Assembly (NCBI GenBank): GCA_012799635.1
Contig: JAAZKW010000023.1
Coordinates: forward strand, 27,135-91,134
DNA length: 64,000 nucleotides
Direction of reading: 5' to 3'
From: Mollicutes bacterium
GTDB taxonomy: Bacteria > Bacillota_I > Bacilli_A > RF39 > UBA660
Shown: one piece after another, positions 7,505 through 63,447 of the stretch
Layout: the number at the start of each line of letters is the position of its first letter
How positions within the stretch are numbered: position 1 is the first letter of the stretch
Notes under the pieces: generated by a model
The model's database searches: none
What the model saw: only the letters and a program-made list of their open reading frames with translations
Told to the model about the DNA's origin: nothing
Position numbers and translations under genes: made by a program

Positions 7505-7523
7505 CTTTATCAAAAATTTAATT

Positions 7524-8313: not shown

Positions 8314-8369
8314 ACTACCACTCCTTCTTGCTATCCACAATTATATTTTAACTTATTTATTTGTTATTT

Positions 8370-9696: not shown

Positions 9697-9715
9697 TATT
9701 TCTATATAAAGTATA

Positions 9716-28572: not shown

Positions 28573-28626
28573 TTTTTTCCTTCTTTCTTTTATTTATATT
28601 TATTATTATAATTATACTGTTATATT

Positions 28627-28635
28627 TGTGGATAA
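28627..28635 (-). promoter_or_regulatory. Perfect DnaA box in the dnaA-dnaN spacer
   Basis: Plus TGTGGATAA is the reverse complement of TTATCCACA. It sits in an extremely AT-rich 116-nt spacer. Confidence 0.6.
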
Positions 28636-28688
28636 TTTTAAACATTAACTGATATTATGCATTTATATGAATAAAATTATTAACAATA

Positions 28689-30041: not shown

Positions 30042-30342
30042 ACCTATACCCCGCATAATTAATTTTCCACACTTTAATTTTAACTTATTTTTAAAAAAAG
30101 ATAAAGTTTAAATAATTGATTTACAAGTTTTCCACAAAAAAGAAACAGCGTTTTTTCTTATAAATACTACTCTAACATAAGTTTTCCACACTTTCAACAA
30201 AATGAAGTTGTTAATAAAAAAAAGATATCAACAAAATAAAAAAGAAGATGTTGTTTGTTTGTTGGTAACTTTTAGTTTGTTAACCTTGACAGTGTATCTA
30301 ATAAGATGTTATGCTATATAAACGAAAAAAGGAGTGATTATT
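30042..30342. promoter_or_regulatory. oriC upstream module: DnaA-box cluster, AT-rich stretch and rpmH promoter region
   Basis: Three co-oriented TTTTCCACA boxes (30063..30071, 30128..30136, 30182..30190), each one mismatch from TTATCCACA. An A/T-rich tract follows. TTGACA lies at 30286..30291. Gene-strand polarity switches here. Confidence 0.8.
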
Positions 30343-30465
30343 ATGAAGAGAACATTTCAAAGAAATAAAAGAAAAATGAAAAAGAAACATGGTTTTTTTG
30401 CAAGAAAAGGCGGAAATATATTAAATTCTCGTCGTAGAAAAGGAAGAAAAAAATTATCAAAATAA
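30343..30465 (+). CDS. rpmH: 50S ribosomal protein L34 (absent from the ORF track)
   Basis: 40 aa: MKRTFQRNKRKMKKKHGFFARKGGNILNSRRRKGRKKLSK. RBS AAAGGAG lies 8 nt upstream. Canonical position before rnpA. Confidence 0.9.
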   Translation: MKRTFQRNKRKMKKKHGFFARKGGNILNSRRRKGRKKLSK

Positions 30466-30487
30466 CCACTTTTTAGTGGGTTTTTTT
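30465..30487 (+). terminator. Weak hairpin plus T7 run between rpmH and rnpA
   Basis: CCACT-tttt-AGTGG followed by TTTTTTT. The stem is only 5 bp. Confidence 0.3.
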
Positions 30488-30489
30488 CT

Positions 30490-30834
30490 ATGTGGAATAT
30501 TATGAAAAAGAAAGACAGGATTAAATCAAGTATTGAGTTTAATAAAATTATTAAAATAGGAAAAAAAATTTCTAATGCTTTTTATGCTATATTTTACATT
30601 GAAAAAGAAGAAGAAAATCCAAAGTTTGGAATAGGAGTGTCTAAAAAATTTAAAAAAGCAGTATTAAGAAATAAAGTAAAAAGACAAATGAGAGAAATAA
30701 TTTTTAAGACAAAAAATTTATTTCCAAAAAATAAAAATTATATTATAATAGTAAAGGAAGAGTTTACAAAAATATCATTTGATGAAAAATTAAATAATTT
30801 TAAAAAAGTAATAGGAGAAATACATGAAAAATAA
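30490..30834 (+). CDS. rnpA: Ribonuclease P protein component
   Basis: Basic 114-aa protein with an RNR-type motif (VLRNKVKRQMRE), directly after rpmH. An alternative start at 30502 is possible. Confidence 0.88.
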   Translation: MWNIMKKKDRIKSSIEFNKIIKIGKKISNAFYAIFYIEKEEENPKFGIGVSKKFKKAVLRNKVKRQMREIIFKTKNLFPKNKNYIIIVKEEFTKISFDEKLNNFKKVIGEIHEK

Positions 30835-31882
30835 ATTTAAAATAATAATATTATTGTTTCTAATGTTATGTATAACTGGATGTGGTGCTAAAAATTTAAT
30901 AATTGATAAGAATAATAAAATAGTAACAAGTAAAGAAACAGGACAAAGTTTACAAAGAGAAATATATTGTAAACCATCGAAAAATACAGAAACATATAAA
31001 CTTTATGAAAAATATTCTGATCAAATGAAAACTAAACTAGAGGATTTACCAGAATGTAATAAATTTAAGATGAATTCTACAAAAACGAGCAGTTTATGGC
31101 AATTTTTATTTGTAAAACCTTTAGCATTTATATTATTAAAATTAGGAAATTTATTTAAATATATGGGATTAACAAAATCATATTTAGCAGTGTCATTAAT
31201 AGTTATTGGTTTATTAATAAGAATAATTATATTACCATTTAATATAAAAAGTCAAAATCAAAGTAAACAAATGCAAAAAGCAATGCCGGAAATAAAAAGG
31301 ATAGAAAAAAAATATGCTAATTCAAATGATAAGACAGAAATGATGATGCGTGCTTCTGAAATTCAAAAAATATATAATAAATATAAAATAAATCCAGTAT
31401 TAAGTTGTTTGTTAGCATTAATTCAATTACCAATCTTTTTCGCTTTTTTACAAGCTATATATAAAATACCAGCAATTTATGAGGGAGAAATTTTTGGTTA
31501 TAATTTAGGCACAACACCAAGCGTTGGTTTATTTGAAAAACAACAATATGGATATATAATTTTAATTTTATTAATTATATTAACTACGTTCTTTTCGTTT
31601 AAATACACAATGAAACAATCACAAGCTTCTAATCAAGAAGATGGTAAAAATCAAATGAATACAATGTTAATAGTTATGACTGTACTTATAGGTTTTACAT
31701 CCTTTTCTCTTCCTACAGCTATAGCAATTTATTGGATAGTTACATATTCTTTTATAATTATACAAACATATATAATGAAAGTAATTGAAAAAAACAAAGA
31801 TATAAAAAGGAATCCAAGAAAAAAGAAAATAAATGATAAATTAAAATTGAAAGAAGGGCTAAAATATGGAAAAAATAGTTAA
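30824..31882 (+). CDS. yidC: Membrane protein insertase YidC/SpoIIIJ (lipoprotein form)
   Basis: Lipobox LMLCITGCG, multiple TM segments, and QMQKAMPEIKRIEKKY typical of the 60-kDa inner membrane insertase core. Confidence 0.88.
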   Translation: MKNKFKIIILLFLMLCITGCGAKNLIIDKNNKIVTSKETGQSLQREIYCKPSKNTETYKLYEKYSDQMKTKLEDLPECNKFKMNSTKTSSLWQFLFVKPLAFILLKLGNLFKYMGLTKSYLAVSLIVIGLLIRIIILPFNIKSQNQSKQMQKAMPEIKRIEKKYANSNDKTEMMMRASEIQKIYNKYKINPVLSCLLALIQLPIFFAFLQAIYKIPAIYEGEIFGYNLGTTPSVGLFEKQQYGYIILILLIILTTFFSFKYTMKQSQASNQEDGKNQMNTMLIVMTVLIGFTSFSLPTAIAIYWIVTYSFIIIQTYIMKVIEKNKDIKRNPRKKKINDKLKLKEGLKYGKNS

Positions 31883-32474
31883 AAAAGGAAAAGACATCGA
31901 TTCTATTTTAGAAGAGTTTTGTGAAGAGACAGGTTTGACAAAAGATGATATTGTTTATAAGGATTCAGAACAAAAAAAAGGTCTTTTTAAAGGGACAGTA
32001 AATGAAGTAACAATATATAAAAAAGCAGATATATATTCGTATGCTAAAGAATTTTTAAAAGAAATTGTTGAAAAATTAGGTCTTGAGGTATCTTTTGAAA
32101 CAAAGAAACAAGAAGATAAAGTTATAATAAGAATGTATTCTGATAATAACAATATTTTAATAGGACATAACGGGAACACGTTAAGAGCTTTAGAAACAAT
32201 TGTTAAACAAAAAATTCAATTAGAAACAGATTTATATTTTATGATTTTTCTTGATGTTGAAAATTATAAAGATAAAAAAGAAGCAAGAATTAAAAGACTT
32301 GCAAGACAAATCGCAAGAGAGGTAAAAAGAACTAATATTGAAGTTAAAATGGAAAACATGAATGCCTATGAAAGAAGAATAGTTCATAGCGCTTTAACAA
32401 AATTTAAAGGAGTTTCTACAAAAAGCGAAGGAGTAGAACCAAACCGTCATGTTGTTATTAGTCCAGTAAAATAA
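31866..32474 (+). CDS. jag: Jag/KhpB RNA-binding protein (KH + R3H)
   Basis: R3H motif MNAYERRIVHSAL, a KH-like central domain, and a position after yidC. Confidence 0.85.
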   Translation: MEKIVKKGKDIDSILEEFCEETGLTKDDIVYKDSEQKKGLFKGTVNEVTIYKKADIYSYAKEFLKEIVEKLGLEVSFETKKQEDKVIIRMYSDNNNILIGHNGNTLRALETIVKQKIQLETDLYFMIFLDVENYKDKKEARIKRLARQIAREVKRTNIEVKMENMNAYERRIVHSALTKFKGVSTKSEGVEPNRHVVISPVK

Positions 32475-32498
32475 ACTATGTTAAAGCATAGTTTTTTT
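32473..32498 (+). terminator. Rho-independent terminator after jag
   Basis: AAACTATG-ttaaag-CATAGTTT followed by a T-run. Confidence 0.7.
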
Positions 32499-32555
32499 AT
32501 TATAATTACATATATCTGTGGATTTATGCTATAATACCGTTGCAAAGGAAAAAAT

Positions 32556-33896
32556 ATGGATGATACAATTTGTGCCATTTCAACAGCACAAGGAATAGGT
32601 GCTATATCTATTATTAGAGTAAGTGGATCTGAAGCAATTAAAATAGTTCAGAGTATTTTTTCTAATGAAATAAAAAGTAAAGAAACACATGTTATTAAGT
32701 ATGGAAAAATAATTTATAATAAGGAAATAATTGATGAAGTTCTATTAATGGTTATGAGAAGTCCCAAAACATATACAAAAGAAGACATTGTAGAAATAAA
32801 TTGTCATGGAGGATATAACACTACCAATATGATACTTAGAATTTTACTTGATAAAGGCTGTAGACTTGCAGAACCAGGGGAATTTACTAAACGAGCTTTC
32901 TTAAATGGAAGAATTAATTTATTAGAATCAGAAGCAGTTAATGATCTTATTATGGCTAAAACAGATTCTAAAAGAAAACTTTCTCTTAATCAAATAGGGG
33001 GTAAACTAACAATAAAAATTAACGAGATTAGAGATATGTTATTATCTTTAATGGCAAATATTGAAGTAAATATTGATTATCCTGAATATACAGATAATTT
33101 AGTTATTACAAAGAAATTATTAAATGAAAAATTAAATGAAATAGCCAAATATTTATCTAAATTAGTAAAAGAATCTGAATATGGAAGAATTGTTTCAAAT
33201 GGGATAATGGTCGCTATAGTTGGTAAGCCTAATGTTGGAAAAAGTAGTATATTAAATAGTTTATTAGATGAAGAAAGAGCAATTGTAACAGATGTTGCAG
33301 GCACTACTAGAGATATTGTTGAGGGAGTAGTATCATTAAATGGTATTGAGGTTAAATTAGTAGATACTGCAGGAATAAGAGAGACAAAAGATGTTGTAGA
33401 GAAAATTGGTGTTGAAAAGAGTTTGGAAATTATTCAAAAGTGTGATGTTATATTATTTGTAATTGATGCAACAACAGGGATTACAAAGGAAGATAAAAAA
33501 ATTTTAAATAAATTAGACATTAATAAAACAATAATTTTCGCAAATAAAGATGATCTAAAACATAAGAAGATAATTACAAATTTTGAAATTGTTTATGGTA
33601 ATGCTAAAACATTAGACGGACTAGATAATCTTAAAAATAAATTAATAGAAAAATTTAACATAAGTGAAATCAATAGGGACTTAACTTATCTTTCAAATTC
33701 AAGACAATTAGACTTAATAAAAAAAGCTAATGATTCATTAATTAATGGATTAAATTCTTTAAAAAATAATATTCCTATAGATATGATTGAAACTGACTTA
33801 CGAGCATGTTATGAATATTTAAGTGAGATATTAGGTGAAAGATATGAAGAAGATCTTGTAAATAGATTATTTAAAGATTTTTGCGTAGGGAAGTGA
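32556..33896 (+). CDS. mnmE: tRNA modification GTPase MnmE
   Basis: DTICAISTAQG, GKPNVGKSS, DTAGIR, C-terminal FCVGK. Confidence 0.93.
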   Translation: MDDTICAISTAQGIGAISIIRVSGSEAIKIVQSIFSNEIKSKETHVIKYGKIIYNKEIIDEVLLMVMRSPKTYTKEDIVEINCHGGYNTTNMILRILLDKGCRLAEPGEFTKRAFLNGRINLLESEAVNDLIMAKTDSKRKLSLNQIGGKLTIKINEIRDMLLSLMANIEVNIDYPEYTDNLVITKKLLNEKLNEIAKYLSKLVKESEYGRIVSNGIMVAIVGKPNVGKSSILNSLLDEERAIVTDVAGTTRDIVEGVVSLNGIEVKLVDTAGIRETKDVVEKIGVEKSLEIIQKCDVILFVIDATTGITKEDKKILNKLDINKTIIFANKDDLKHKKIITNFEIVYGNAKTLDGLDNLKNKLIEKFNISEINRDLTYLSNSRQLDLIKKANDSLINGLNSLKNNIPIDMIETDLRACYEYLSEILGERYEEDLVNRLFKDFCVGK

Positions 33897-33903
33897 AAAT
33901 ATT

Positions 33904-35781
33904 ATGTACGATATAATTGTAGTTGGTGCTGGTCATGCAGGAATAGAAGCAGCTCATATTTGTGCTAAAATGGGATTTAATACATTACTATTATCATCAA
34001 ATTTAAATAATATTGCTGATATGGCGTGTAATCCATCTATTGGAGGAAGTGCAAAAGGAGTTATAGTAAGAGAAATAGATGCTTTGGGTGGTCTAATGGG
34101 AAAAGCATCCGATGAATCACATTTTCAAATAAAAATGTTAAATAATTCTAAAGGACCAGTTATAAGGGCATTAAGAGCACAAATAGATAAAAAAGTTTAT
34201 CCTAAAGTTATGAGAAGATATCTTGATGAAACAAAAAAATTAATTCTTAAAGAAGGAATGGTAGAAGATATAATTATTAAAAATAATCAAGTTAAGGGAG
34301 TAATTTTATCAGATAACAAGAGATTTGAAAGTAAAATTGTAATTCTTACAACAGGAACATACTTAAATTCAAATATACTAATAGGCGATGAAAACATAGT
34401 AAGTGGACCACATGGAGAAAAAAGAAGTAACTTTTTATCATTAAATTTAAAAAAATATGGTATTAATATTAAAAGATTAAAAACAGGAACACCTCAAAGA
34501 ATAAAAGGAGATAGCATTAATTTTAATGTTTTAAAAGAGGAAAAGGGTGATGATCATTACTGGACTTTTTCTTTTGATATAAAACCACAATATAAAATAA
34601 ATGAACAGCAAAAATGTTATTTGGTTTATACAAATGCAAAAACACATAAGATAATTAATGAAAATTTAGATAGAAGCGCTATGTATGGAGGATATCTTAC
34701 AAAAGGGGCAGTAGGGCCAAGATATTGTCCATCTATTGAAGATAAGATTGTGCGTTTTTCAGATAAGGAAAGACATCAACTATTTTTAGAACCAGAAAGT
34801 ATCTATTATGATGAATGGTATTTACAAGGTTTTTCAACATCAATGCCAAGAGATGTTCAAGAAAAAATGCTTCATTCTTTAGAAGGTTTGGAAAATGCAG
34901 TAATTTCAAAATATGCTTATGCAATTGAATATGATTCTATTGATCCAATTCAAATTAACGCTAGTTTAGAAAATAAAATTATAAAAAATTTATTTACTGC
35001 CGGACAAATAAATGGAACTTCCGGTTATGAAGAGGCAGCAGCTCAAGGAATTATGGCAGGTATTAATGCTGTTTTGAAATTAAAAAAGAAAGAACCATTT
35101 ATTTTGAAAAGATATGATGCATATATTGGAGTATTAATAGATGATTTAGTTACAAAAGGAATTATTGATCCATATAGAATGCTTACATCACGAGCGGAAT
35201 ATAGATTAATATTAAGACATGATAATGCTGATATAAGACTTACTGAAAAAGGTTATAAAATAGGATCGGTATCTAAAGAAAAATATGAGATTTTTAAAAA
35301 AAGAGTTAATGAAATAGAAAAACTAAAACAGATATTAAAAGATAAAAAACTTCACATAAATGAAGAAGTTAAAGAAATTTTTAAAATTAATAATATTAAT
35401 GTGCCAGCTAGTAATATAAATTTGTTAAGTTTATTAAATAGACCTGAGATAAGTATTGAATTTTTAAAAAACTTTGTTGATTTATCAATGTTTAGTAAAG
35501 ATGCAATAGAAGAAGTAGAGATAGAAACAAAATATTCTGGTTATATTCAAAAAGAGTATAGGGCAATCGAAAAATTAGCAAAACTAGAAGAAAAAAAGAT
35601 TCCCGAAGATATAGATTATACTAAAATAAAAAACATCGCTTCTGAAGCAAGAAGCAAACTTGAAGAAATAAGACCTTTAAATATAGCTCAAGCATCAAGA
35701 ATTAGTGGTGTTAATCCTGTAGATATCTCACTTTTATTAATTTATTTAAAAAAGGAATATAGCAAAGATGAAAATAAATAA
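33904..35781 (+). CDS. mnmG: tRNA uridine 5-carboxymethylaminomethyl modification enzyme MnmG
   Basis: YDIIVVGAGHAGIEAA, NPSIGG, GPRYCPSIEDK, QINGTSGYEEAAAQG. Confidence 0.95.
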   Translation: MYDIIVVGAGHAGIEAAHICAKMGFNTLLLSSNLNNIADMACNPSIGGSAKGVIVREIDALGGLMGKASDESHFQIKMLNNSKGPVIRALRAQIDKKVYPKVMRRYLDETKKLILKEGMVEDIIIKNNQVKGVILSDNKRFESKIVILTTGTYLNSNILIGDENIVSGPHGEKRSNFLSLNLKKYGINIKRLKTGTPQRIKGDSINFNVLKEEKGDDHYWTFSFDIKPQYKINEQQKCYLVYTNAKTHKIINENLDRSAMYGGYLTKGAVGPRYCPSIEDKIVRFSDKERHQLFLEPESIYYDEWYLQGFSTSMPRDVQEKMLHSLEGLENAVISKYAYAIEYDSIDPIQINASLENKIIKNLFTAGQINGTSGYEEAAAQGIMAGINAVLKLKKKEPFILKRYDAYIGVLIDDLVTKGIIDPYRMLTSRAEYRLILRHDNADIRLTEKGYKIGSVSKEKYEIFKKRVNEIEKLKQILKDKKLHINEEVKEIFKINNINVPASNINLLSLLNRPEISIEFLKNFVDLSMFSKDAIEEVEIETKYSGYIQKEYRAIEKLAKLEEKKIPEDIDYTKIKNIASEARSKLEEIRPLNIAQASRISGVNPVDISLLLIYLKKEYSKDENK

Positions 35782-47212: not shown

Positions 47213-48484
47213 ATGGGTAATGTTTATGTTCAAAAAAGAGGTAATGTTTTTCAATATCAATTTCAAATTGCCTCAGTAGATGGTAAAAGAAAGTATCAAA
47301 ATAAGAGTGGATTTCCTACAAGAAATGAAGCGATGAAAGCAGGAATTAAAGCATATTCAGAATATATGAATACTGGTCATGCTTTTACTCCAAATGAAAT
47401 ATCTTATAGTGATTATCTAGACTATTGGATGAAAGAACACTGTGAAATAAATTTAAAATATCATACAATAGAAGCATATAAAAGTATTATAAGAATTCAT
47501 ATTAAACCAAAAATAGGGTGTTATAAATTATCAACTATTACTACTGCAACACTTCAAGAGTTTATTAATAAGGTATATTTGGATGGTAGTTATTCTAAAA
47601 ATTTTTTGAAGAATATATTAAAAGTATTAAAAACATCATTTGGATATGCATACGAGATTGTTCATTTTATTAAATCTAATCCAGCTGATAAAGTAAGATT
47701 ACCTAGATATGATATTCCAGATAGTGATCCAGCACATATATTTACAAAAGAAGAAATAGATAAAATACTTAATAGATTTACTAACAATCCGTGTGCCTAT
47801 TATGCTTTTTTAACTGCATACCATACTGGACTTCGTGTATCAGAAGTATTTGGATTAACTTGGGAAGATATTGATTTTGAAAAGAAAACATTAAGGGTTG
47901 ATAGGAATATTTTAAAAAAGAATCAAGCTGGTGGAACTAAGAAAAGACATATCAGTGGTAATTCAACAACAGTGTGGTATTTTGGAACTTGTAAAACACC
48001 TAGTAGTCATAGAACTATTGAAATAGGAGATACTCTTGTAAATGCACTAAGAGAATATAAAAATCAGCAAGAAAAGAATAAAGAGGAATATGGAGATATG
48101 TATATGAAACATTATGCTAAAGAAGTAATAAATCCATATAATAATAAGAAAGAAATAAAAATAGTAAATGCTAATACTGAAATAGAAGTTTCATTACCAG
48201 AAGTACATTTTGTATTTGTTAAGAAAAATGGGATATATGAGGGAACTGATACTGTTAAATATCCATTTAAAGTTATTCATTATGAGTTAGGAATACCATG
48301 TAGATTCCACGATTTTAGAGATACTCATGCAACTAGATTAATAGAAGCTGGAGCTGATATAAAAGCTGTTTCAAAAAGACTAGGTCATAGTACAATTGAA
48401 ACAACTTATAATATATATGTAAGAGTAACTACTAAAATGGAATCTGACATAGTAACTAAATTTGAAGCATATGCAACTTCCTAG
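47213..48484 (+). CDS. Tyrosine site-specific recombinase/integrase with an N-terminal arm-binding (AP2-like) domain
   Basis: The N-terminus VYVQKRGNVFQYQF...GKRKYQNKSGFPTRNEA is Tn916-Int-like. The catalytic region includes HTGLRVSEVFGLTWEDID, HDFRDTHATRLIEAG, LGHSTIETTYNIY (R..HxxR..Y). Confidence 0.88.
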   Translation: MGNVYVQKRGNVFQYQFQIASVDGKRKYQNKSGFPTRNEAMKAGIKAYSEYMNTGHAFTPNEISYSDYLDYWMKEHCEINLKYHTIEAYKSIIRIHIKPKIGCYKLSTITTATLQEFINKVYLDGSYSKNFLKNILKVLKTSFGYAYEIVHFIKSNPADKVRLPRYDIPDSDPAHIFTKEEIDKILNRFTNNPCAYYAFLTAYHTGLRVSEVFGLTWEDIDFEKKTLRVDRNILKKNQAGGTKKRHISGNSTTVWYFGTCKTPSSHRTIEIGDTLVNALREYKNQQEKNKEEYGDMYMKHYAKEVINPYNNKKEIKIVNANTEIEVSLPEVHFVFVKKNGIYEGTDTVKYPFKVIHYELGIPCRFHDFRDTHATRLIEAGADIKAVSKRLGHSTIETTYNIYVRVTTKMESDIVTKFEAYATS

Positions 48485-48498
48485 TGCATATGTTTTTT
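48467..48498 (+). terminator. Terminator after int
   Basis: CATATGCA/TGCATATG 8-bp stem with the int stop codon in the loop, then a T6 run. Confidence 0.65.
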
Positions 48499-48565
48499 CT
48501 CTGATTTTACCTCATATCAATGATTAAAGCATGAAAATATGATATAATTTAATAAGAGAGTTATT

Positions 48566-49558
48566 ATGGAGGTGATCATATTGTTTGAAGAAAAAATTGA
48601 TATAAAAGAAAATAATATTTTTCAATTTGACTATGATTTACTATCCATATTATTAAAAGATAATACTACTGGAAAAAACATATTATGGGGGACAGATAAT
48701 TATATTAATAGAGGCAACTATTACAAACCAAATGATGAAATAAAAATAGAACAAATAATCAGTTACAATGGTAGTGTTATTAAACCAAGAATAAAAAAGA
48801 GTAAGATGGAACAAGAAAAAAGATCAAAGGATAAAGGAGAAGTGTTTACTCCTGCTTGGGTTTGTAATATGCAAAACAATATTGTAGATACCTGTTGGTT
48901 TGGTTACGAAAATGTATTTAATAAAGAATTAACGGATAGTTGGAAGACTAATAAAAAAAAGATAGAATTTCCAAAAAATAAAACTTGGAAAGATTATGTT
49001 AATGATATTAGACTAGAAATAACATGTGGAGAAGCTCCGTATTTAATAAGTCGATATGATACTACTTCAGGAGATATTATTCCAGTTATTGATAGAATAG
49101 GAATGTTAGACAGAAAATTGAGAGTAATTAATGAAAATGTAAATAATGAAAACGAATGGATTGAGTATTCAATTATGGCATTTAAAAGTACATATGGATA
49201 TGAGTGGCAAGGAGATAGCTTACTTATTGCAAGAGAAAACATGCTATATACCTTTTGCGACAATTATTATTATAAATTTAATTGCTACCCATCAAAGGAT
49301 TTATTAAAGGAAATAGCAAGTATTATATCATGGAATTTATTTCAAATGGATGGATTAAAATATGTTATTCCATATAGTTGTAAAAATGAAGAAAGAATTA
49401 ATTATACTTTGTTCGGAGAAGAGATAGAAAAAATTGAATGCGATGGTTGTAAAAAAGATAATTGTCATTTACATAATGGAATATATGCAAAAATAATGAA
49501 TTGGCAGACAAATAGAAAAGTTAAATTTATTTCTATTTTGAAAAATAGTAATAATTAG
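48566..49558 (+). CDS. Methyltransferase-like protein lacking the catalytic (D/N)PPY motif, with a C-terminal Cys/His knuckle
   Basis: GEVFTPAWVCNMQN (motif-X-like FTPxxV..M) and LEITCGEAPYL (degenerate motif I). No NPPY or DPPY anywhere. C-terminal CDGCKKDNCHLH. An extended -10 TGATATAAT lies upstream. An alternative TTG start at 48581 sits behind RBS GGAGGTGA. Confidence 0.45.
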   Translation: MEVIILFEEKIDIKENNIFQFDYDLLSILLKDNTTGKNILWGTDNYINRGNYYKPNDEIKIEQIISYNGSVIKPRIKKSKMEQEKRSKDKGEVFTPAWVCNMQNNIVDTCWFGYENVFNKELTDSWKTNKKKIEFPKNKTWKDYVNDIRLEITCGEAPYLISRYDTTSGDIIPVIDRIGMLDRKLRVINENVNNENEWIEYSIMAFKSTYGYEWQGDSLLIARENMLYTFCDNYYYKFNCYPSKDLLKEIASIISWNLFQMDGLKYVIPYSCKNEERINYTLFGEEIEKIECDGCKKDNCHLHNGIYAKIMNWQTNRKVKFISILKNSNN

Positions 49559-49568
49559 AGGTGAACAT

Positions 49569-52500
49569 ATGAGAGATGATAGTTTATTAGATAAAATTAT
49601 TGTAGGAAGAGTTGATCCTTATATTTATGCTTTTACAACAAATACTGTTCCAAATTATCTAAAAGTAGGAGATACTTATAGACCTATTAGTGTTAGATTA
49701 AATGAATGGAAAAAGCATTATCCAGATTTAGAAAAGAAGTTTGAACATAAAGCACTGGTATCTGATAATGTATTTTATAGAGATTATTCAATTCATCAAT
49801 ATTTGGAAAATGATTTAGATAAAAAAAGACTAACAACTGAAGATATTGATTCTAATATTTATTATTCAAATGAATTTTTTAAAGAAACATCTGTATATGA
49901 TGTGGAAGAGGCAATAAATGATATTCAAAAAGATTTTGAAGAAAACTTAATGAAGTATCAATTCTATAATGCTGATGAAAATCTAAGATTAATAACTCAA
50001 TATGCTTCAACAGGACTATGGAAATTAAGACCTAATCAAAAACAAGTAGTTGAGAATTTTAAGAAGGCACTAGAAAAAGGAAGAAATAATCTTTTGTTAT
50101 ATGCTGTAATGAGATTTGGTAAAAGTTTTACATCAATGTGTTGTGCAGTTGAAATGGGGGCAAATATTGTTCTTATTGTTTCTGCAAAAGCAGATGTAAA
50201 AGAAGAATGGAAAAAAACAGTACAAAGTGCTGATAATTTCAATGAGTATGATTTTATTGAAAGTGAAGAACTATTGAGAGATTCAGAAATCATAAAACAT
50301 AAATTGGAACAAAATAAAAAAGTAGTTATATTTGCAACATTACAAGATTTACAAGGAAATGAAATAAAAGAAAAACATAAAGAATTATTTGAATCTAATA
50401 TTGATTTAATATTGGTTGATGAAACACATTTTGGAGCTAGAGCTGAAAAATATGGTGCTGTATTAAGAGATATAAAAGACAACAGAGATGATTCATATAT
50501 TGATTTTAAGACAGCAAATGAGCAAATAAAAACATTAAATTCAAAAGTTAAAATTCATTTATCAGGGACACCATATAGAATTTTAATGGGATCTGAATTT
50601 ACTAAAGATGATATCATTGGATTTTATCAATTTACTGATATAGTTAATGAACAAGAAAAATGGGATAATGAGCATATTTTAGATGACAATTATAAAGAGT
50701 GGGATAATCCCTATTATGGTTTTCCTCAAATGATTAGATTTGCTTTTAATCCAAGTAAATCAATAAGAGAAAAAATGGAAGAATTAAGGAATAATGGTGT
50801 ATCGTTTGCATTTTCAGAATTATTAAAACCATTATCTATAAAAAAAGATGAAAATAATAATCACAAAAAATTTAAGTATGAAAATGAAGTCTTTGAATTA
50901 TTAGAAGTTATAGATGGGAGTAAAACGGACTCAGAAGTATTAAGCTTTCTAGATTATGATAAAATTAAAGAAGGAAATATGTGTAGGCATATAGTCATAG
51001 TTTTACCATATTGTGCATCTTGTGATGCTATGGAGAACTTAATAAAAACAAACTCCACACATTTTAAGAATTTAAATGAATATGAAATAATTAATATATC
51101 TGGTGTTGACAAATTCAATTTATATAAAAAGGTTACAGATGTAAAAAACAAGATAAAAGAATGTGAAAAAAATAATAAAAAAACTATTACATTAACTGTT
51201 AATAGAATGCTTACAGGTTCAACTGTAGAAGAATGGGATACAATGATTTATTTAAAGGATACTTCTTCTCCTCAAGAATATGATCAAGCAATTTTTAGAT
51301 TACAAAATCAATATATTAAACAGTATATTTCAGAAGATGGAGATATTATAAAATATAATAAAAAACCACAAACATTGTTAGTAGATTTTGATCCAAATAG
51401 AATGTTTGTTATGCAAGAAGCTAAATCATTAATCTATAATGTTAATACAGAAAAGAATGGTAATCAAAAACTAAATGAAAGATTAGAAAGGGAGCTTCAA
51501 GTATCTCCTATAATTGTAATTAATAAGGACAAAATAAAAGAAATAACTGCTGTAGACATTTTACAATATATAAGCAATTATTCTAATGAAAGAAGTGTAC
51601 TTGAAGAAACTAATGACTTGCCTGTAGACTTCAAGTTATTAAATATTGATGAAATAAGAGAAGTAATTTTACGACAATCTCAATTAGGAACAAAAGGTGG
51701 CTTAAAAATTGCGAATACAGATGATGAACCTGATGATGATTTAAATATTGAAGTATTATCACTTGATTTAGGCGATACTCAATCTTCTTCTATTCAAGAA
51801 AATGATAATGAGAATAATCCAACTACAGAAGATGATAAAATTAAAAAATCTATAGTAAATAAATTTAGAACATATTATATAAGAATTTTATTCTATTCAT
51901 TTTTATCAAATTCAGTGTTAAATTCTTTGGAAACACTTATAGAATCACTTGAAAAAGAAAATAATGAAAGAATAGCTAAGAATTTAGGATTAGAAAAAAA
52001 TACATTGCAATTAATATATGAAAATATAGATCCATTTATACTAAGTCAATTGGATTATAAAATTCAAAACATTAATCATTTATCTAATGATGAAACCTTA
52101 AACGAAATTGATAGAGCTTTGGTTGCAATTAATAAGTTTTATAAATTGTCTGAATCAGAAATTGTTACACCACAAAATGTATGTAATGAAATGATATCAT
52201 TATTTTCTAAAGAAGAATTTAAAAATATTTTATGCAATGGGAAAATATTAGATATAGCAAGTAAAGAAGGAGAATTTGCATTAGCTTTATATACAAAAGC
52301 ATTACAACTTGGAATTGAAAAGGGAAAAATAGTTAATTCAATTTACTCTATTCCAACTTCTCCTGTTGCATATGAATTTACAAGAAAAATCTATGAAATA
52401 CTAGGTTTAAATATTAAAAATATATCAAGAAATGTCAATACATATAATATGCTGGATATTCATGACAATAACGATAATATTGATTTTGATACAGTAGCTA

Positions 52501-53627
52501 ATATAATTTGTAGTAGTATTAATAATTTTGATGAATTTGTTTTAGAGCAAAATTTATTTACGGAAACGGAGGGAAATAAGATGAAATTTAATGCTGTTGT
52601 TGGTAATCCACCATATCAAGAAGAAACTGTTGTTAATAGTAATTCAAATGGACAAAACCCAAGAAGAAATATATTTCACTATTTCCAACTTCAATCTATG
52701 AAACTAACCGACAATAAAACTGTATTAATTTATCCAGGTATAAGATGGATTCATCAATCTGGTAAAGGATTGAAACAGTTTGGTCATGATCTTATAAATG
52801 ATAATCGTTTAGAAACTCTTATTTTTTATCCAAACGGTAAACAAGTTTTCCCTAATACTGATTTACCAGATGGAATTTCAATTGTAGATATTAATCTTAA
52901 TAAAACAAAATCAGGATTTAATTATAAATTTGTTAATGATAGTATTAACTTAGAAATAGAACAATCAAATCCTGGAGATAGTCTATTAGTTGTAAATCCA
53001 TCTGATAATATCATAAGTAAAAAAATAGATTCGTTTGTAGAAAAAAATAATCTTAAATATTTACACGATAGTGTTTTATCTCGTTCATTATTTGGTATAG
53101 AAAGTGATTTTGTAGATAAGAATAAAACAAAAATTGAATTGTTTGATGATAATAAAAAATATGATTTTAATAAAAAAATAAAGTTATTAACAAATGACAA
53201 ATCTGGACCTGCAGGAAGAAGCAAGTGGTTTGTTGCAGATAGAAATGTTATAAGTCAAAATCAAGAACTTATTTCACAATATCAAGTAGTTGTATCAAGT
53301 GCACATCCAGGAGGACAAGATGGAAGAGATAATCAATTATCTATTATAGATAATAATAGTGTATTTGGTAGAGCTCGTGTTGCCTTAAAATCATTTAAAA
53401 CATTAAAAGAAGCTGAAAATTTTTATAAATATATAAATAGTAAAATAATAAAGTTTGCTTTCTTATTAACTGATGAAAATTTATCTTCTTTAGGTAAAGC
53501 AGTACCAGATGTATTGGATTATTCGTCAAACTCAATTATTGATTTTACTAAAGATATTGATAAACAATTGATTGAATTATTAAAAATCACTAAGGAAGAA
53601 TATGAATATATATTATCAAGATTATAG
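49569..53627 (+). CDS. Fusion protein: T5orf172/GIY-YIG-like domain + SF2 (ResIII-type) helicase + gamma-class N6-adenine DNA methyltransferase with a target-recognition tail
   Basis: 1352 aa. N-terminus PYIYAF...YLKVGDTYRPISVRLNEW...HQYL...SNEFF. Helicase motifs MRFGKSFT (GKS at 50118..50126), LILVDETHFG (DETH at 50418..50429), LSGTPYR, QAIFRLQN. MTase motifs VTPQNVCNEM, ILDIASKEGEF, VGNPPYQ (NPPY at 52605..52616, aa 1013-1016). Its start lies 10 nt after the upstream gene. Confidence 0.7.
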   Translation: MRDDSLLDKIIVGRVDPYIYAFTTNTVPNYLKVGDTYRPISVRLNEWKKHYPDLEKKFEHKALVSDNVFYRDYSIHQYLENDLDKKRLTTEDIDSNIYYSNEFFKETSVYDVEEAINDIQKDFEENLMKYQFYNADENLRLITQYASTGLWKLRPNQKQVVENFKKALEKGRNNLLLYAVMRFGKSFTSMCCAVEMGANIVLIVSAKADVKEEWKKTVQSADNFNEYDFIESEELLRDSEIIKHKLEQNKKVVIFATLQDLQGNEIKEKHKELFESNIDLILVDETHFGARAEKYGAVLRDIKDNRDDSYIDFKTANEQIKTLNSKVKIHLSGTPYRILMGSEFTKDDIIGFYQFTDIVNEQEKWDNEHILDDNYKEWDNPYYGFPQMIRFAFNPSKSIREKMEELRNNGVSFAFSELLKPLSIKKDENNNHKKFKYENEVFELLEVIDGSKTDSEVLSFLDYDKIKEGNMCRHIVIVLPYCASCDAMENLIKTNSTHFKNLNEYEIINISGVDKFNLYKKVTDVKNKIKECEKNNKKTITLTVNRMLTGSTVEEWDTMIYLKDTSSPQEYDQAIFRLQNQYIKQYISEDGDIIKYNKKPQTLLVDFDPNRMFVMQEAKSLIYNVNTEKNGNQKLNERLERELQVSPIIVINKDKIKEITAVDILQYISNYSNERSVLEETNDLPVDFKLLNIDEIREVILRQSQLGTKGGLKIANTDDEPDDDLNIEVLSLDLGDTQSSSIQENDNENNPTTEDDKIKKSIVNKFRTYYIRILFYSFLSNSVLNSLETLIESLEKENNERIAKNLGLEKNTLQLIYENIDPFILSQLDYKIQNINHLSNDETLNEIDRALVAINKFYKLSESEIVTPQNVCNEMISLFSKEEFKNILCNGKILDIASKEGEFALALYTKALQLGIEKGKIVNSIYSIPTSPVAYEFTRKIYEILGLNIKNISRNVNTYNMLDIHDNNDNIDFDTVANIICSSINNFDEFVLEQNLFTETEGNKMKFNAVVGNPPYQEETVVNSNSNGQNPRRNIFHYFQLQSMKLTDNKTVLIYPGIRWIHQSGKGLKQFGHDLINDNRLETLIFYPNGKQVFPNTDLPDGISIVDINLNKTKSGFNYKFVNDSINLEIEQSNPGDSLLVVNPSDNIISKKIDSFVEKNNLKYLHDSVLSRSLFGIESDFVDKNKTKIELFDDNKKYDFNKKIKLLTNDKSGPAGRSKWFVADRNVISQNQELISQYQVVVSSAHPGGQDGRDNQLSIIDNNSVFGRARVALKSFKTLKEAENFYKYINSKIIKFAFLLTDENLSSLGKAVPDVLDYSSNSIIDFTKDIDKQLIELLKITKEEYEYILSRL

Positions 53628-53630
53628 AAA

Positions 53631-53663
53631 AAGAACTTATACTTTATTTGGTATAAGTTTCTT
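53631..53663. terminator. Bidirectional terminator between convergent genes
   Basis: AAGAACTTATAC-tttatttg-GTATAAGTT(T)CTT with T/A runs on both sides. Confidence 0.6.
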
Positions 53664-54101
53664 TTATTTTAATAATTTATCAATAGATAACTTGTGATTA
53701 AAACATATTGTATATAATACAAGAGAAGTAACAAGTGTTTTACCATTTTCATACAAACTATATGATTGTTGAGTTATCATACATTCATCAGCAATTTGTT
53801 TTTGAGTTAAACCTAATTGCTTTCTAATAGATTTAAGTTTTGCTCCTACATCTTCTTTATTAAGTTTCTTTATTGTTGAATAGTCATTCTTTCTAGATAG
53901 TCCAGTAATATAATCTAAAGAGTAGTGATACATGTTTGCAAACTTAACCATTTTAGGAAGAGGCATAGTATCGTTATTATTTTCCCATCCAGATACAGTT
54001 GCTCCAGTAACTCCAAAAACATATCCAAGTTCCTCTTGTGTCATTTCAAGTTCTTCTCTACAATATTTGATATTATTATTTAACATCATATTATCACCCA
54101 T
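53664..54101 (-). CDS. XRE-family repressor with two HTH_3 domains
   Basis: Two Cro/CI-type HTH units: MTQEELGYVFGVTGATVSGWENN and LTQKQIADECMITQQSYSLYENG. Start moved to MGDNM (or the MM at 54089) because the track's extension covers the divergent promoter. Confidence 0.8.
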   Translation of the reverse strand: MGDNMMLNNNIKYCREELEMTQEELGYVFGVTGATVSGWENNNDTMPLPKMVKFANMYHYSLDYITGLSRKNDYSTIKKLNKEDVGAKLKSIRKQLGLTQKQIADECMITQQSYSLYENGKTLVTSLVLYTICFNHKLSIDKLLK

Positions 54102-57361: not shown

Positions 57362-60145
57362 ATGAAATCAAAGATAGGTAAGTATGCTATGATGAGCATA
57401 CTTTTTTTGTTGACTATTTTTGGTATTCAGACAGTTCATGCTGAACAGTACACAGGACAAGCAATTTGGCCTAGTGAACATATTAGCAATATCTATATTA
57501 AAAAAGATAGAAATGATGGATATTCAAAATGGCAACAAGCAAGATTTATTAGAAGAAGTGAAGATAATAAATTCGTTTATTGTTTGCAACCTTATGCTGA
57601 TATAGATAATAATTTACCATATTATGATGTAATTAGATCTGATTATGAAAGAGTATTAGGATTTAGTGAAGCACAATGGGAAAGAATTTCACTTTTAGCA
57701 TATTATGGATATCAATATAATGATAATGGTTATAATCATAATGATCAAAAATGGTATGCTATTACTCAAGTAATGATTTGGAGAACAACAAATCCAGATT
57801 CAAATATATATTTTACTGATACATTAAATGGTAATTATACTTCTAAATTTGATGGAGAAATGGCTGAATTAGAATCTTTAGTATCTAATCATTATAAAAC
57901 TCCTAATTTAGAAAGTGGTATAGTTTTACCAATAGGACAAACTAAAGAATTAAATGATCCAAATGGAGTTCTAAGTAATTATACAATAACTGGAACTGAA
58001 AATGTTACTGCTTCAATTAATGGTAATACATTATCAGTAACAGCAAATAGTATTGGTGAAGGTAAAGTAACTTTTGAAAAGAGAGCTACTAAATATGAAA
58101 TACCACCAATAGTATATTTTAGTGATCATTCTCAAAATGTATTTAGAGTTGGTAATTATGATCCAGTTAGAACAAAATTCACTTTAAAAGTAATTGGTGG
58201 AAGAGTTACACCAGCAAAGGTTGATGTGGAAACAAAAACCAATACTCCACAAGGAGAAGCAAAACTTGGTGGAGCTGTATATGGTATTTATAAAGTAGAT
58301 GGAACTAGAGTTGGTTCTGTTACTACTAATGATGATGGTAGAAATACTTCTGATTATTTACCAGAACTTGGTAGGTTCTACCTATTAGAAGAAAAACCAT
58401 CTGAAGGATATTTATTAGATAGTAATAAATACTATTTTGAAATAACTGAAGATAATTTAAATCCTGAAGTACAAGTATTTGAGCAAGTAATTAAATTAGA
58501 TTTTGAATTTACAAAAGTATATGCTAGTGCTGAAACTCAAATTATGGAACCTGAAGTAGGAATTAAGTTTGGTATTTACAATAAATCTGGAGAACAAGTT
58601 AAAGAAATAACAACAGATTCTCAAGGTGTATTTAGATTTACTTTACCTTATGGAACTTATACAGTTAAACAATTAACAACAACAAAAGGTCATGAAAAAA
58701 TAGAAGATTTTAATGTTGAAGTTAAAACAACAGGAGAAGTTGTAAAGAAAGTTATTTCAAATGCTCCTATTACTGCTAAATTAAGAGTAGTTAAAATAGA
58801 TGCAGAAACTAAAGAAGTAATTAAAAGAGCAAATATTAAGTTTAAAATATTTGATATTAAAAACAATGAATATGTATGTCAAACAATTACATATCCAAAT
58901 AAAACAACAATCTGTGAATGGGAAACTGATTCAGAGGGGGAATTTACAACAGCTTATCCATTGATGACAGGTACATATAGACTTGAAGAAGTAGATCAAG
59001 TTGTAGAGGGTTATTTATGGAATAGCCAATCACATGAATTTTCAATTGATGAGAATTCTAAATTAAGAACTGATTCTGAGTATGGAATTATATTTGATAC
59101 AGCTTTTGAAAATCAACCAGTTAAAGGAGAAATTCAAATAAAGAAAACTGGAGAAGTAGCAGAATTAACTGATAATGGTTTTGAATTTAAAACAGATTCA
59201 TTAGAAGGAGTTAAGTTCGGATTATATGCACAAGAGGACATTATTTGGAATGATAAAGTGATTTATACTAAAGATTCTTTAGTGGAAGAAAAAATAACAG
59301 ATAAAGATGGAAACATTGTGTTTGATAATCTTTACTTAGGTAAATACTATGTTAAAGAACTTTCGACTTTAGATAATTATGTTTTAGATGAAAATACATA
59401 TGAAGCAGAGTTAATTTATAAGGATCAATATACACCAGTTATTGTATATTCTGAATCAATTTTAAATATATTAAAAACTGGAAAATTAGAATTCACAAAA
59501 ACTGATATATCCGAATCAAAAACATTACCAAATACACTTATAGAAATATATACTGAAAACGATGAACTAGTATTCTCTGGTAGAACAGATGAAAATGGTA
59601 AGATAGTTATTGAAAGACTTCCACAAGGAAAATATTACATTTTAGAAAAGGAAGCTCCTGAGGGTTATAAGTTGAATGAAGAAAAAATGCCATTTGAAAT
59701 AAAAGAAAATGGAGAAATAATTAAATCAACAATGAAAGATGAAGATATCACTGGTACTTTAGAATTTACTAAAGTAGATATTTCAACAGATGAACCACTT
59801 CCAAATACACTAATTGAAATTTACAATGCTGAAAACGATGAACTAGTATTCTCTGGTAGAACAGATGAAAATGGTAATATCACAATTGATAAAATCAAAT
59901 ATGGTAAATATTACATTTTAGAAAAAGAAGCTCCAGCAGGATATCAACTAAATCCTGAAAAAATGTATTTTGAAATTACTGAAGATGGACAAGTAATTAA
60001 GTCTGTTATGAAAGATGAAAAGATTGTTGAAGTTCCAAACACAGGTTTATCAGAAATAAATTATGATAAGGTAACTCCTATTATTGTTATTGTATTAGGA
60101 GCTGGATTAATTATCTATGCAACAAAGAAAAACAAAAAGAAATAG
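57362..60145 (+). CDS. Sortase-anchored surface adhesin: N-terminal thioester (TQXA) domain plus repeated Cna-B/SpaA-type stalk domains
   Basis: Signal peptide. Thioester Cys context FVYCLQPYA and YAITQVMIWR (TQxxxW). At least 6 prealbumin-like repeats (GxYxLxExxAPxGY). C-terminal VPNTG, then a hydrophobic segment, then KKNKKK. Confidence 0.8.
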   Translation: MKSKIGKYAMMSILFLLTIFGIQTVHAEQYTGQAIWPSEHISNIYIKKDRNDGYSKWQQARFIRRSEDNKFVYCLQPYADIDNNLPYYDVIRSDYERVLGFSEAQWERISLLAYYGYQYNDNGYNHNDQKWYAITQVMIWRTTNPDSNIYFTDTLNGNYTSKFDGEMAELESLVSNHYKTPNLESGIVLPIGQTKELNDPNGVLSNYTITGTENVTASINGNTLSVTANSIGEGKVTFEKRATKYEIPPIVYFSDHSQNVFRVGNYDPVRTKFTLKVIGGRVTPAKVDVETKTNTPQGEAKLGGAVYGIYKVDGTRVGSVTTNDDGRNTSDYLPELGRFYLLEEKPSEGYLLDSNKYYFEITEDNLNPEVQVFEQVIKLDFEFTKVYASAETQIMEPEVGIKFGIYNKSGEQVKEITTDSQGVFRFTLPYGTYTVKQLTTTKGHEKIEDFNVEVKTTGEVVKKVISNAPITAKLRVVKIDAETKEVIKRANIKFKIFDIKNNEYVCQTITYPNKTTICEWETDSEGEFTTAYPLMTGTYRLEEVDQVVEGYLWNSQSHEFSIDENSKLRTDSEYGIIFDTAFENQPVKGEIQIKKTGEVAELTDNGFEFKTDSLEGVKFGLYAQEDIIWNDKVIYTKDSLVEEKITDKDGNIVFDNLYLGKYYVKELSTLDNYVLDENTYEAELIYKDQYTPVIVYSESILNILKTGKLEFTKTDISESKTLPNTLIEIYTENDELVFSGRTDENGKIVIERLPQGKYYILEKEAPEGYKLNEEKMPFEIKENGEIIKSTMKDEDITGTLEFTKVDISTDEPLPNTLIEIYNAENDELVFSGRTDENGNITIDKIKYGKYYILEKEAPAGYQLNPEKMYFEITEDGQVIKSVMKDEKIVEVPNTGLSEINYDKVTPIIVIVLGAGLIIYATKKNKKK

Positions 60146-60752
60146 TATAATTACTGTTGTAGGAATATTACTAATATTTTTTGGTGCTTCATATCTAATA
60201 TTTAATCATTTTTCTAATGAAAGATTAAAGCAAAAAGATAATAATAAAATTGAAGAATTTTTTGAAATAGAAGATGAAGAACCAGAAGAAGAAATAGAAG
60301 AAGTTATAGAACAACCTAAAGAAGAAAAACAAACAATTAATTATGATTATATTGCAGTATTAGAAATACCAAAAATAAATCTTAAGAGAGGTTTAGTTAG
60401 TACAGACAGTAGATATAATAATGTTAATTACAATATTAAAATAGTTGATGGCTCTTTAATGCCTTATGTCAGAAATGGTAATCTAATACTTGCAGGTCAT
60501 AATGGATCTGCTTATATTTCTTTTTTTAAAAATCTATATAAGTTAGATATAAATGATAGTGTCTATGTTTTTTTTGATGGTATAAAATATGAATATAAAA
60601 TAGCTGACATATATGATGTGGATAAAACTGGAACTGTTAACATATCTAGAGATAAAAATAGAACTACTATAACTCTAATTACTTGTAAAAAATATAGTAA
60701 AGATAAACAAACAGTTTTTATTGGATATTTAAGTAATAAGGAATCTTATTAA
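60117..60752 (+). CDS. Sortase-family transpeptidase
   Basis: N-terminal TM. LILAGHNG (catalytic His) and TTITLITCKK (catalytic Cys). Overlaps the adhesin 3' end. Confidence 0.8.
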   Translation: MQQRKTKRNSIITVVGILLIFFGASYLIFNHFSNERLKQKDNNKIEEFFEIEDEEPEEEIEEVIEQPKEEKQTINYDYIAVLEIPKINLKRGLVSTDSRYNNVNYNIKIVDGSLMPYVRNGNLILAGHNGSAYISFFKNLYKLDINDSVYVFFDGIKYEYKIADIYDVDKTGTVNISRDKNRTTITLITCKKYSKDKQTVFIGYLSNKESY

Positions 60753-63159: not shown

Positions 63160-63447
63160 ATGTACAAATTAGCAAATTATTTTAATATGTTAAAAATTGA
63201 ACATCTTGAAGGTGGAAGTTATGATGTTAACTCTATCCTAAAAGCAATTAAAACTCTTACTAGTTGGGCTTTATCAATTGGTATTGCAGCTGCAGGTGTT
63301 TCACTGGTCATTGGATTTATATTATATGCAATTGCTGATGTTGAACAAAAAGCAAGAGTTAAGCAAAGAATTATTCAAACAATGTTAGGTATTGCTGGAA
63401 TAATCTTAGCAATATCTTTGGTAAATTTAATCATAGACTTATTTTAA
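63160..63447 (+). CDS. T4SS pilin-like (VirB2/TrbC-like) two-TM protein
   Basis: 95 aa with two long hydrophobic helices (WALSIGIAAAGVSLVIGFILYAI and MLGIAGIILAISLVNLII) separated by a charged loop. RBS AAGGAGG. Precedes a polytopic membrane protein. Confidence 0.5.
   Translation: MYKLANYFNMLKIEHLEGGSYDVNSILKAIKTLTSWALSIGIAAAGVSLVIGFILYAIADVEQKARVKQRIIQTMLGIAGIILAISLVNLIIDLF

Follow-up and report, generated by a model that had tools for sequence, protein, structure and literature searches.

The 64,000-nt stretch analysed here (hereafter the window; all coordinates are counted from its first letter) belongs to contig JAAZKW010000023.1 of a Mollicutes bacterium and carries a two-gene operon on its forward strand, where all features described below are located unless stated otherwise. 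The open reading frames, 48566..49558 (330 aa) and 49569..53627 (1352 aa), are co-oriented and 10 nt apart, as an earlier note on this DNA had stated. The large product joins a nuclease domain, an ATPase motor and an N6-adenine methylase in a single chain, and the small one, to judge from its motifs, corresponds to a methylase's N-terminal, cofactor-binding half, with motifs X, I, II and III and a zinc ribbon. We refer to the small protein as N1 and to the N-terminal methylase half within the large protein as N2.

The small gene probably starts at the TTG at 48581, which gives a product of 325 aa (48581..49558). This start is preferred because a GGAGGTG sequence (48568..48574) is located 6 nt upstream of it and because the homologues begin with MF-E---DIKEN; the form starting at ATG 48566 adds five residues (MEVII) without counterpart in these homologues. 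Residue numbers of the small protein given below follow the ATG 48566 form of 330 aa. The ATG of the large gene is preceded by a Shine-Dalgarno sequence, AGAGGTG. A perfect extended −10 promoter element, TGATATAAT (TGnTATAAT), was read from the sequence 33-41 nt 5' of the TTG start; the earlier note had recognised this motif correctly, but it occupies 48540..48548 and not about 48542..48550. The operon is bracketed by two hairpins, each followed by a U-run. The first (48464..48505; hairpin 48464..48496, dG −14.3 kcal/mol, z −4.9) terminates the preceding integrase gene, and the second, bidirectional one (53629..53673; hairpin 53629..53665, dG −13.5 kcal/mol on the forward and −10.9 kcal/mol on the reverse strand, z −5.05) closes the operon. 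Both terminators, formerly placed at 48467..48498 and 53631..53663, fold much better than shuffled controls. A scan for consensus terminators detected neither of them, because their stems are AT-rich, and folding revealed both.

The large gene (49569..53627) is matched along its whole length by the PADLOC model REase_MTase_IIG (PDLC03626; 1260 bits, residues 6-1350 on profile positions 11-1354). Residues 18-119 (49620..49925) constitute a T5orf172 domain, which belongs to the GIY-YIG superfamily of nucleases, in agreement with what had been read from its letters earlier. When the first 150 aa were scanned alone, Pfam PF10544 was matched at 30.9 bits against a cutoff of 20, over profile positions 2-100 of 101; the Pfam scan of the full-length protein did not list T5orf172. 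The same domain was matched in 19 of 30 diverse relatives. The large protein gave no Pfam match to Mrr, and the former contrast with LlaGI/LlaBIII holds, T5orf172 standing in the place of the Mrr nuclease. Conservation in the large protein was judged in 33-58 relatives, which share 50-67% identity with the window copy. In the nuclease core, residues Y20, K32-x-G34-D-T, R38, R43, E46, H76 and E102-F-F are invariant or nearly so, with Y20, R43 and E102 invariant.

The nuclease is followed by a superfamily 2 (SF2)/Snf2-like ATPase motor (residues ~152-640; 50022..51488), matched by ResIII over residues 152-336 (3e-13) and further by fold. All the helicase motifs formerly listed for it (GKS, DETH, SGTP and QxxxRxxN) are present and invariant among the relatives: GKS at 184-186 (Walker A), DETH at 284-287, SGTP at 332-335 and QxxFRLQ at 573-579, the motif VI of the window copy being QAIFRLQN (573-580). 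A linker (51489..52145), composed of a disordered acidic stretch (about residues 713-752) and a helical bundle, leads to the methylase. In the AlphaFold model, which covers residues 153-1352, was built from a 58-sequence alignment and has a mean predicted local distance difference test score (pLDDT) of 80, this linker shows pLDDT below 50 at model residues 561-600 and helices at 602-705.

The motif order X-I-II-III-IV(NPPY) of a gamma-class N6-adenine methyltransferase is present in the large protein, and the earlier assignment to this class stands. Its N-terminal half, N2 (residues 860-1004; 52146..52580), was delimited by its motifs, namely X EIVTPQNVCNEM, I ILDIASKEGEF, II IYSIPTSP and III YNMLDI, with strands beta1 and beta2 predicted at pLDDT of about 90. 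It lacks the acid of motif II (P929-T-S); the glycine of motif I is found in 48 of 58 relatives and the aspartate of motif III in 47 of 58. The catalytic half (residues 1005-1100; 52581..52868) contains FNAVVGNPPYQ, with NPPY encoded at 52605..52616, and GNPPYQ (G1012-Q1017) is invariant in 58/58. Eco57I (PF07669, 4e-20) was matched over residues 923-1094 and profile positions 1-171, i.e., by the full profile. Motif I of M.TaqI has the pattern LEPACAHGPF. The letters DIASKEGEF are indeed there, but the motif I of N2, described formerly as atypical, follows this pattern and is thus not very atypical. The C-terminal tail (residues 1101-1352; 52869..53624) is presumed to be a target-recognition domain; its likeness to the C-terminal half of a long relative, P0297, is described below.

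The top match of the large-protein model among PDB folds is the Type ISP enzyme LlaBIII (4xqk, E 2e-20), over the whole length and about 1500 aligned columns. This is consistent with the parallel in domain order to LlaGI/LlaBIII drawn from the letters beforehand. Further fold matches comprise CamA and M.TaqI for the methylase and C-terminal domain, and the Snf2-type motors ISWI, Chd1 and INO80 for the ATPase. Neither 4xqk nor 5ffj came up at E<=1 when PDB chains were searched by sequence (phmmer and profile) with the large protein, and NCBIfam matched neither of the two proteins of the operon.

The small protein deserves special attention. It is matched end to end by the REBASE-derived PADLOC model MTase_II (1e-118) and was modelled by AlphaFold with pLDDT 87; against Pfam, NCBIfam and PDB sequences it produced no match. 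Among 56 sequences about 70 columns are invariant. Motif X, EVFTP (residues 92-96; 48839..48853), is identical in 56/56 and aligns with the EVFTP of a half-methylase from Paenisporosarcina. Motif I, LEITCGEAPYL (residues 150-160; 49013..49045), with E151 and C154-Y159 invariant (56/56), aligns with LEPAAGEGAFL (hhalign probability 84%, E 7e-6) from a half-methylase of canonical type, which itself matches positions 9-118 of the N6_Mtase profile. The region from motif II, YGYEWQGD (210-217), through motif III, FQMDG (259-263), is encoded at 49193..49354, with E/D213, Q215-G-D217 and Q260-M-D262 conserved in all 56. Next comes a Cys3His zinc ribbon (49379..49474), whose ligands C272, C292, C295 and H303 are present in 56/56; it is missing from the homologue on Pediococcus plasmid pRS5. 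This corrects the CxxCx4CxH knuckle proposed formerly, as C300 is conserved in only 7 of 56 sequences and is outside the zinc site.

N1 ends before strand beta4 and NPPY, about 20 residues short of the position at which its long relatives have KFDFVIGNPPYQ. An exhaustive search with the small protein yielded 1801 representatives, and the best 150 of them include 84 of 300-420 aa and about 30 long forms of 600-800 aa; of the 84 short representatives, 80 have no (N/D/S)PP(Y/F/W) after motif I. Without a catalytic half, N1 would therefore be unable to methylate on its own. The earlier note had correctly pointed to the TP motif, to CGEAPYL and to the lack of a catalytic tetrapeptide. Its view of CGEAPYL as a remnant of motif I did not survive, as CGEAPY is invariant also in the NPPY-bearing relatives, and the motifs are identical in short and long forms; judged by this conservation, CGEAPY is the normal motif I of the N1 family. 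Nor is the small protein a degenerate paralogue of the large one, to which it shows no similarity (BLASTP E 0.72, hhalign probability 1%); with its many invariant columns it is among the best conserved parts of the system. A PD-(D/E)XK nuclease in the small protein (VIDRIGMLDRK) was considered and rejected, the spacing being wrong and the region aligning with a methylase helix.

The two genes are tightly associated. The small gene is located directly upstream of the large one and on the same strand in all informative genome loci (78/78); two further loci, with less than 120 nt of upstream sequence, were uninformative. At the loci examined the genes are separated by 0-50 nt or overlap. The sole locus with the small gene about 1 kb upstream is L062, from a metagenome-assembled genome of Campylobacter sp., where an insertion between the genes is possible. 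The divergence of one protein parallels that of the other (r = 0.66, n = 48), and a natural fusion of N1 with a helicase-N2 protein exists (P0313). Searches retrieved more than 6900 relatives of the large protein and, for the small one, about 8000. A scan of one genome per species confirmed 500 loci, i.e., at least 500 species, and the family is frequently found on mobile elements. Their hosts include Bacillota, Bacteroidota, Spirochaetota, Campylobacter, Mycoplasma, Lentisphaeria and Propionibacteriaceae. Outside the window the pair occurs in chromosomal islands, on small non-mobilizable plasmids, on 10-kb plasmids and on prophage-like contigs; in Alistipes it adjoins Mob and integrase genes. 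In one metagenomic chromosome (L001, 1903..5574) it is found beside a Lamassu-like cluster (LmuB_C, MC3, CTD7), a neighbourhood that marks a defence island.

Another observation is that the catalytic half is encoded in different genes in different members of the family. In the layout of the window (layout A; L001, L003, L005 and 54 of 80 loci in the viral collection), gene 1 encodes N1, and the product of gene 2 runs from T5orf172 through helicase, linker, N2 and NPPY half to the tail. In layout B (L007, L008/L009, L094, L098 and 14 of the 80 viral-collection loci), gene 1 joins N1 to the NPPY half and the tail in a complete methylase of 650-710 aa, and gene 2 (~1120 aa) encodes T5orf172, helicase, linker and an orphan N2, stopping exactly where beta4 would follow. 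This pattern held in 3/3 complete cases. The layout B systems (such as P0297/L007, P0279/L008 and P0287/L094) have the same modules as the window operon, with N1 48-60% identical, but their catalytic half and tail are joined to N1 and the motor protein ends in an orphan N2. The long forms of the small protein have the corresponding structure, an N1 module followed by KFDFVIGNPPYQ and a C-terminal half, and in P0297 this C-terminal half shares 49% identity with the window large protein over residues 1005-1352 of the latter (E 2e-103). Both layouts therefore keep two N-terminal halves with one catalytic half, and from this comparison of sequences the catalytic half would have moved between the small subunit and the motor protein in the course of evolution.

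More distant clades are carried on plasmids of Paenisporosarcina, Limosilactobacillus, Lactococcus and Pediococcus, where a giant of 1417-1480 aa is accompanied by a protein of 230-306 aa which either covers the first third of the N6_Mtase profile only or is a direct N1 homologue. The nuclease module across these clades is mostly T5orf172, with DUF4145 in a plasmid of L. lactis (L092, 2126..7178), and L. reuteri pAN417A (L011, 3095..9187) has an additional Mrr_N+Mrr_cat gene between the giant and the half-methylase. The matches on Lactococcus plasmids were considered as LlaGI/LlaBIII themselves and rejected: they belong to a further clade, whose N-terminus is DUF4145 or T5orf172 and which has a 230-aa half-methylase of its own.

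Three derivatives are devoid of nuclease and motor and keep N1 with the methylase part. The first is found in the jumbo phages PTm1 and PTm5, whose N1 is 50.6% identical to the small protein of the window. In Tenacibaculum phage PTm1 (L096, NC_049340, 4143..6999) N1 is gp279, and neither nuclease nor helicase is present; two genes upstream of N1, an N2 block is joined via a frameshift to gp277, which starts with MKFDIIVGNPPYQ, and a helix-turn-helix gene is located between gp277 and gp279. The frameshift may be genuine or a sequencing error. The idea that PTm1 is devoid of any N2 was abandoned when the block was found in another reading frame. The second derivative, L106 (IMG/VR 3300029856_000001, 6986..9760), is a natural deletion derivative adjoining an integrase. 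Its N1 is intact and is followed by a helicase-less protein of 584 aa, where N2, NPPY half and tail are attached without a break to a remnant of T5orf172 (LIYVFR...CLKIGEAT). In the third, L157, N1 accompanies the catalytic half, with no motor within 4.8 kb. As all three retain N1 together with the methylase part, N1 is linked to modification and not to translocation or cutting, an argument that is suggestive only. The partner might still act as the sensor or specificity subunit suggested in the earlier note; what is seen here connects it with the modification arm.

Stand-alone N1 cores of about 200 aa were also seen on two virome contigs, L099 (7181..7777; MT836051) and L100 (7103..7705; MT836154). 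Motifs X, I, II and III are intact in them, the N-terminal extension and the zinc ribbon are missing, and no homologue of the large protein or of the catalytic half was found within 7 kb. These cores could be phage decoys of the subunit.

The operon is situated between a tyrosine integrase gene of a mobile element (47213..48484; Phage_integrase 4e-28, Phage_int_SAM_3) and a gene for an Xre repressor. Beyond it are genes for a TED/SpaA adhesin, a sortase, two single-stranded DNA-binding proteins (SSBs) and a type IV secretion system (T4SS) pilin; the adhesin is a surface protein of 927 aa with a thioester (TED) domain and six SpaA-type repeats, the sortase is next to it and the pilin is further away. 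Surface protein, sortase and pilin (57362..60752 and 63160..63447) have the appearance of an apparatus for adhesion and mating, as expected of a Gram-positive conjugative element. The earlier note had placed the operon next to the integrase of an integrative and conjugative element (ICE), which agrees with the adjoining tyrosine integrase and with the conjugative-element genes that follow. By its gene content the region fits an operon carried as cargo by such an element, whose far end is outside the window.

In design, the large protein resembles the Type ISP enzymes LlaGI and LlaBIII of Lactococcus plasmids, which likewise combine nuclease, SF2 motor, N6A methylase and target recognition in one polypeptide. 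By analogy, their mechanism would be expected here too, in which a single strand receives N6-methyladenine (m6A), ATP drives translocation and the cut is made at a distance. Unlike these enzymes, the large protein has T5orf172 and not an Mrr/PD-(D/E)XK nuclease, and it has an obligatory second subunit (78/78 loci), whereas a single polypeptide is sufficient in LlaGI/LlaBIII. Sequence similarity to them is undetectable, and in its methylase and tail the large protein comes closer to CamA and M.TaqI.

The system also resembles DnmA(YeeA)-YeeB-YeeC, the helicase-associated branch of the MmeI family, in its N6A methylase with target recognition, SF2 helicase and T5orf172/GIY-YIG protein (PMC2731913, PMC9973331). 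In this YeeA/B/C cluster, MmeI-like methylases have a helicase and a GIY-YIG protein as flanking neighbours (PMC2731913). In contrast with our operon, these are three separate proteins of MmeI type, whereas the window protein is fused and of Eco57I type, with no match to MmeI_Mtase, and a half-methylase partner is not described for DnmA-YeeB-YeeC. Enzymes like that of the window, helicase or GIY-YIG relatives, were mentioned in passing as uncharacterised by Morgan 2009 (PMC2731913) and Sisakova 2013 (PMC3553950).

With the Type IIG enzymes of the Eco57I class, as filed in REBASE and PADLOC, the large protein shares restriction and modification in one chain and an Eco57I-type methylase. An ATPase motor is absent from classical Type IIG enzymes, which cleave at a fixed distance. 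As the SF2 helicase of the large protein is, unlike in that class, intact and invariant, the Type IIG label is a matter of database filing and not the likely mechanism. Finally, in DNMT3A/DNMT3L, METTL3/METTL14 and the Mod dimer of Type III systems, an active methylase is paired with a catalytically incompetent partner of methylase fold, which may activate or position it; the likeness of N1 to such partners is one of analogy, and the partner here is the N-terminal half of the fold only.

We consider it very likely that the operon encodes a restriction-modification or defence enzyme of Type ISP-like design. The fuller reading, which we favour and regard as probable, is that of a two-subunit, ATP-dependent Type ISP-like restriction-modification system carried as cargo of a conjugative element. 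If it works as LlaGI and LlaBIII do, its methylase and tail would read an asymmetric site and place m6A on one strand of the host DNA; on unmodified DNA the motor would translocate along the double strand, and the T5orf172 domain would cut away from the recognition site. From comparative genomics, N1 would be a non-catalytic, indispensable subunit, bound to the large enzyme as part of the modification arm. It may supply or gate the binding of S-adenosylmethionine, or may represent a second, inactive methylase-like protomer, for which DNMT3L beside DNMT3A, or the Mod subunit responsible for recognition in Type III enzymes, could serve as models. That the role of the partner lies in modification is a proposal with about equal chances of being right and wrong.

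Some observations weigh against this reading. The methylase domain of the large protein looks complete on its own, with the full Eco57I profile matched and strands beta1, beta2 and beta4 predicted confidently, and the structure therefore gives no reason for N1. The window copy has N960 at the motif III position that is an aspartate in 47 of 58 relatives, and for a specificity domain the tail varies rather little. The likeness to LlaGI/LlaBIII is seen at the level of fold alone (TM ~0.3, 11-12% identity), and the sole PDB-chain match by sequence profile is to a different enzyme, DrdV (E 9e-4). A fold search with the N1 model found nothing significant (best E 0.37); its top-ranked matches, BrxX, DrdV and LlaGI, are taken as a ranking hint only. 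Among the derivatives that connect N1 with modification, the methylase gene of PTm1 is frameshifted and L106 is possibly a recent deletion, and the cases are few. The literature offered passing mentions and the work on DnmA, and neither the fused family nor its partner was found to have been characterised. The DnmA-YeeB-YeeC system of B. subtilis did not restrict phage or plasmid (PMC9973331).

A bolder version of the favoured reading, which we consider rather doubtful, makes N1 a trans-acting switch. N1 and N2 would be alternative cofactor halves for one catalytic half, with N1 picking methylation or restriction. Phages would exploit this through N1 alone or, as in PTm1, through N1 with a methylase part, pushing the host enzyme towards modification or poisoning it, in the manner of lambda Ral but by subunit mimicry.

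An unlikely alternative to the two-subunit Type ISP-like system is that of a split methylase, in which N1 binds S-adenosylmethionine and completes the NPPY active site in trans, and N2 is a pseudo-half serving as scaffold or adapter. The invariant acids of motifs I, II and III in N1 would suit it, as would the weaker motifs of N2, with no motif II acid and a variable motif I glycine and motif III aspartate. In layout B, moreover, the only complete methylase is N1 fused to the NPPY half, and N2 is an orphan. PTm1 gp277, annotated as free-standing and located near a free-standing N1, has also been counted in its favour, but the N2 block of PTm1 is located upstream of gp277 in another reading frame. 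In the window protein, N2 and the NPPY half form one canonical, contiguous domain according to both AlphaFold and Pfam, leaving no space for N1 at the beta1-beta4 interface, and the motif I of N2 fits the M.TaqI pattern.

We find it improbable that the operon is a relic, an orphan m6A methylase of epigenetic function which has lost restriction, as proposed for DnmA-YeeB-YeeC. The silence of that B. subtilis analogue towards phage and plasmid, already mentioned, and the existence of methylase-only derivatives (PTm1, L106) speak for it. The residues of the nuclease, of Walker A and B, of motif VI and of NPPY are, however, invariant in the 33-58 relatives and all present in the window copy, both genes are intact, and the operon retains its own promoter and terminator. 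In addition, a related Vibrio system protects against phage, according to the citation of that work in the B. subtilis paper (PMC9973331).

A function in ICE establishment or anti-restriction, the second of which the earlier note had entertained, has still less in its favour, and the anti-restriction idea found no support. The methylase-helicase would protect or process the DNA of the transferred element in the recipient, and the operon does adjoin the integrase of an element with Xre repressor, SSBs, sortase, adhesin and T4SS pilin; large helicase-methylase proteins occur on conjugative plasmids. Against this, the same pair is widespread outside ICEs, in chromosomal islands, on small non-mobilizable plasmids, on prophage-like contigs and once beside Lamassu. 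Protection needs no conserved nuclease, and the motifs of nuclease, motor and methylase are all invariant; the operon is bracketed by terminators of its own, as cargo would be. Least probable of all is an independent Type II methyltransferase for the second strand, as suggested by the PADLOC MTase_II, REBASE-type and NCBI labels of the small protein and by the parallel of Eco57I, which has a restriction-modification fusion and a separate methylase, since N1 has no motif IV-VIII region and no Pfam methylase match and an NPPY-type tetrapeptide is missing from nearly all short representatives.

The analysed stretch holds a further feature. Positions 27457..35781 span the chromosomal replication origin, with dnaA (28689..30056) and dnaN on the reverse strand, rnpA, yidC, mnmE and mnmG on the forward strand, and a change of sign in GC skew at about 30 kb. 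The mobile element is therefore located about 17 kb from oriC.

The family is not new to databases. It is already listed there as putative, and annotation pipelines file it as ordinary 'Type IIG + M'; the statement of the earlier note that no named system has this combination does not hold, given that PADLOC/REBASE-derived models match both proteins end to end and that NCBI names exist for relatives ('restriction endonuclease subunit M', 'Eco57I ... domain-containing protein'). The labels of small-protein homologues in plasmid and phage records vary, from 'restriction endonuclease', 'type II restriction endonuclease' and 'restriction endonuclease subunit M' to 'N-6 DNA methylase' and 'hypothetical'. 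None of them fits a half-methylase, and 'methyltransferase' and 'restriction endonuclease' are probably both wrong. What is of interest, and apparently undescribed, is the conserved half-methylase subunit, the shifting catalytic half and the phage-borne copies.

The family is present in at least 500 species-level genomes of many phyla, on plasmids of dairy lactic acid bacteria, in ICEs and in prophages. If our reading is true, the Type ISP design would extend to a second, unrelated nuclease fold, and a restriction system would possess a conserved non-catalytic half-methylase subunit. It would offer a natural system for the question of how single-strand-modifying enzymes choose between methylation and cleavage, and it may reveal a phage counter-measure by copying of the subunit. 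In gut Bacillota and lactic acid bacteria, such systems are likely barriers to transformation and conjugation.

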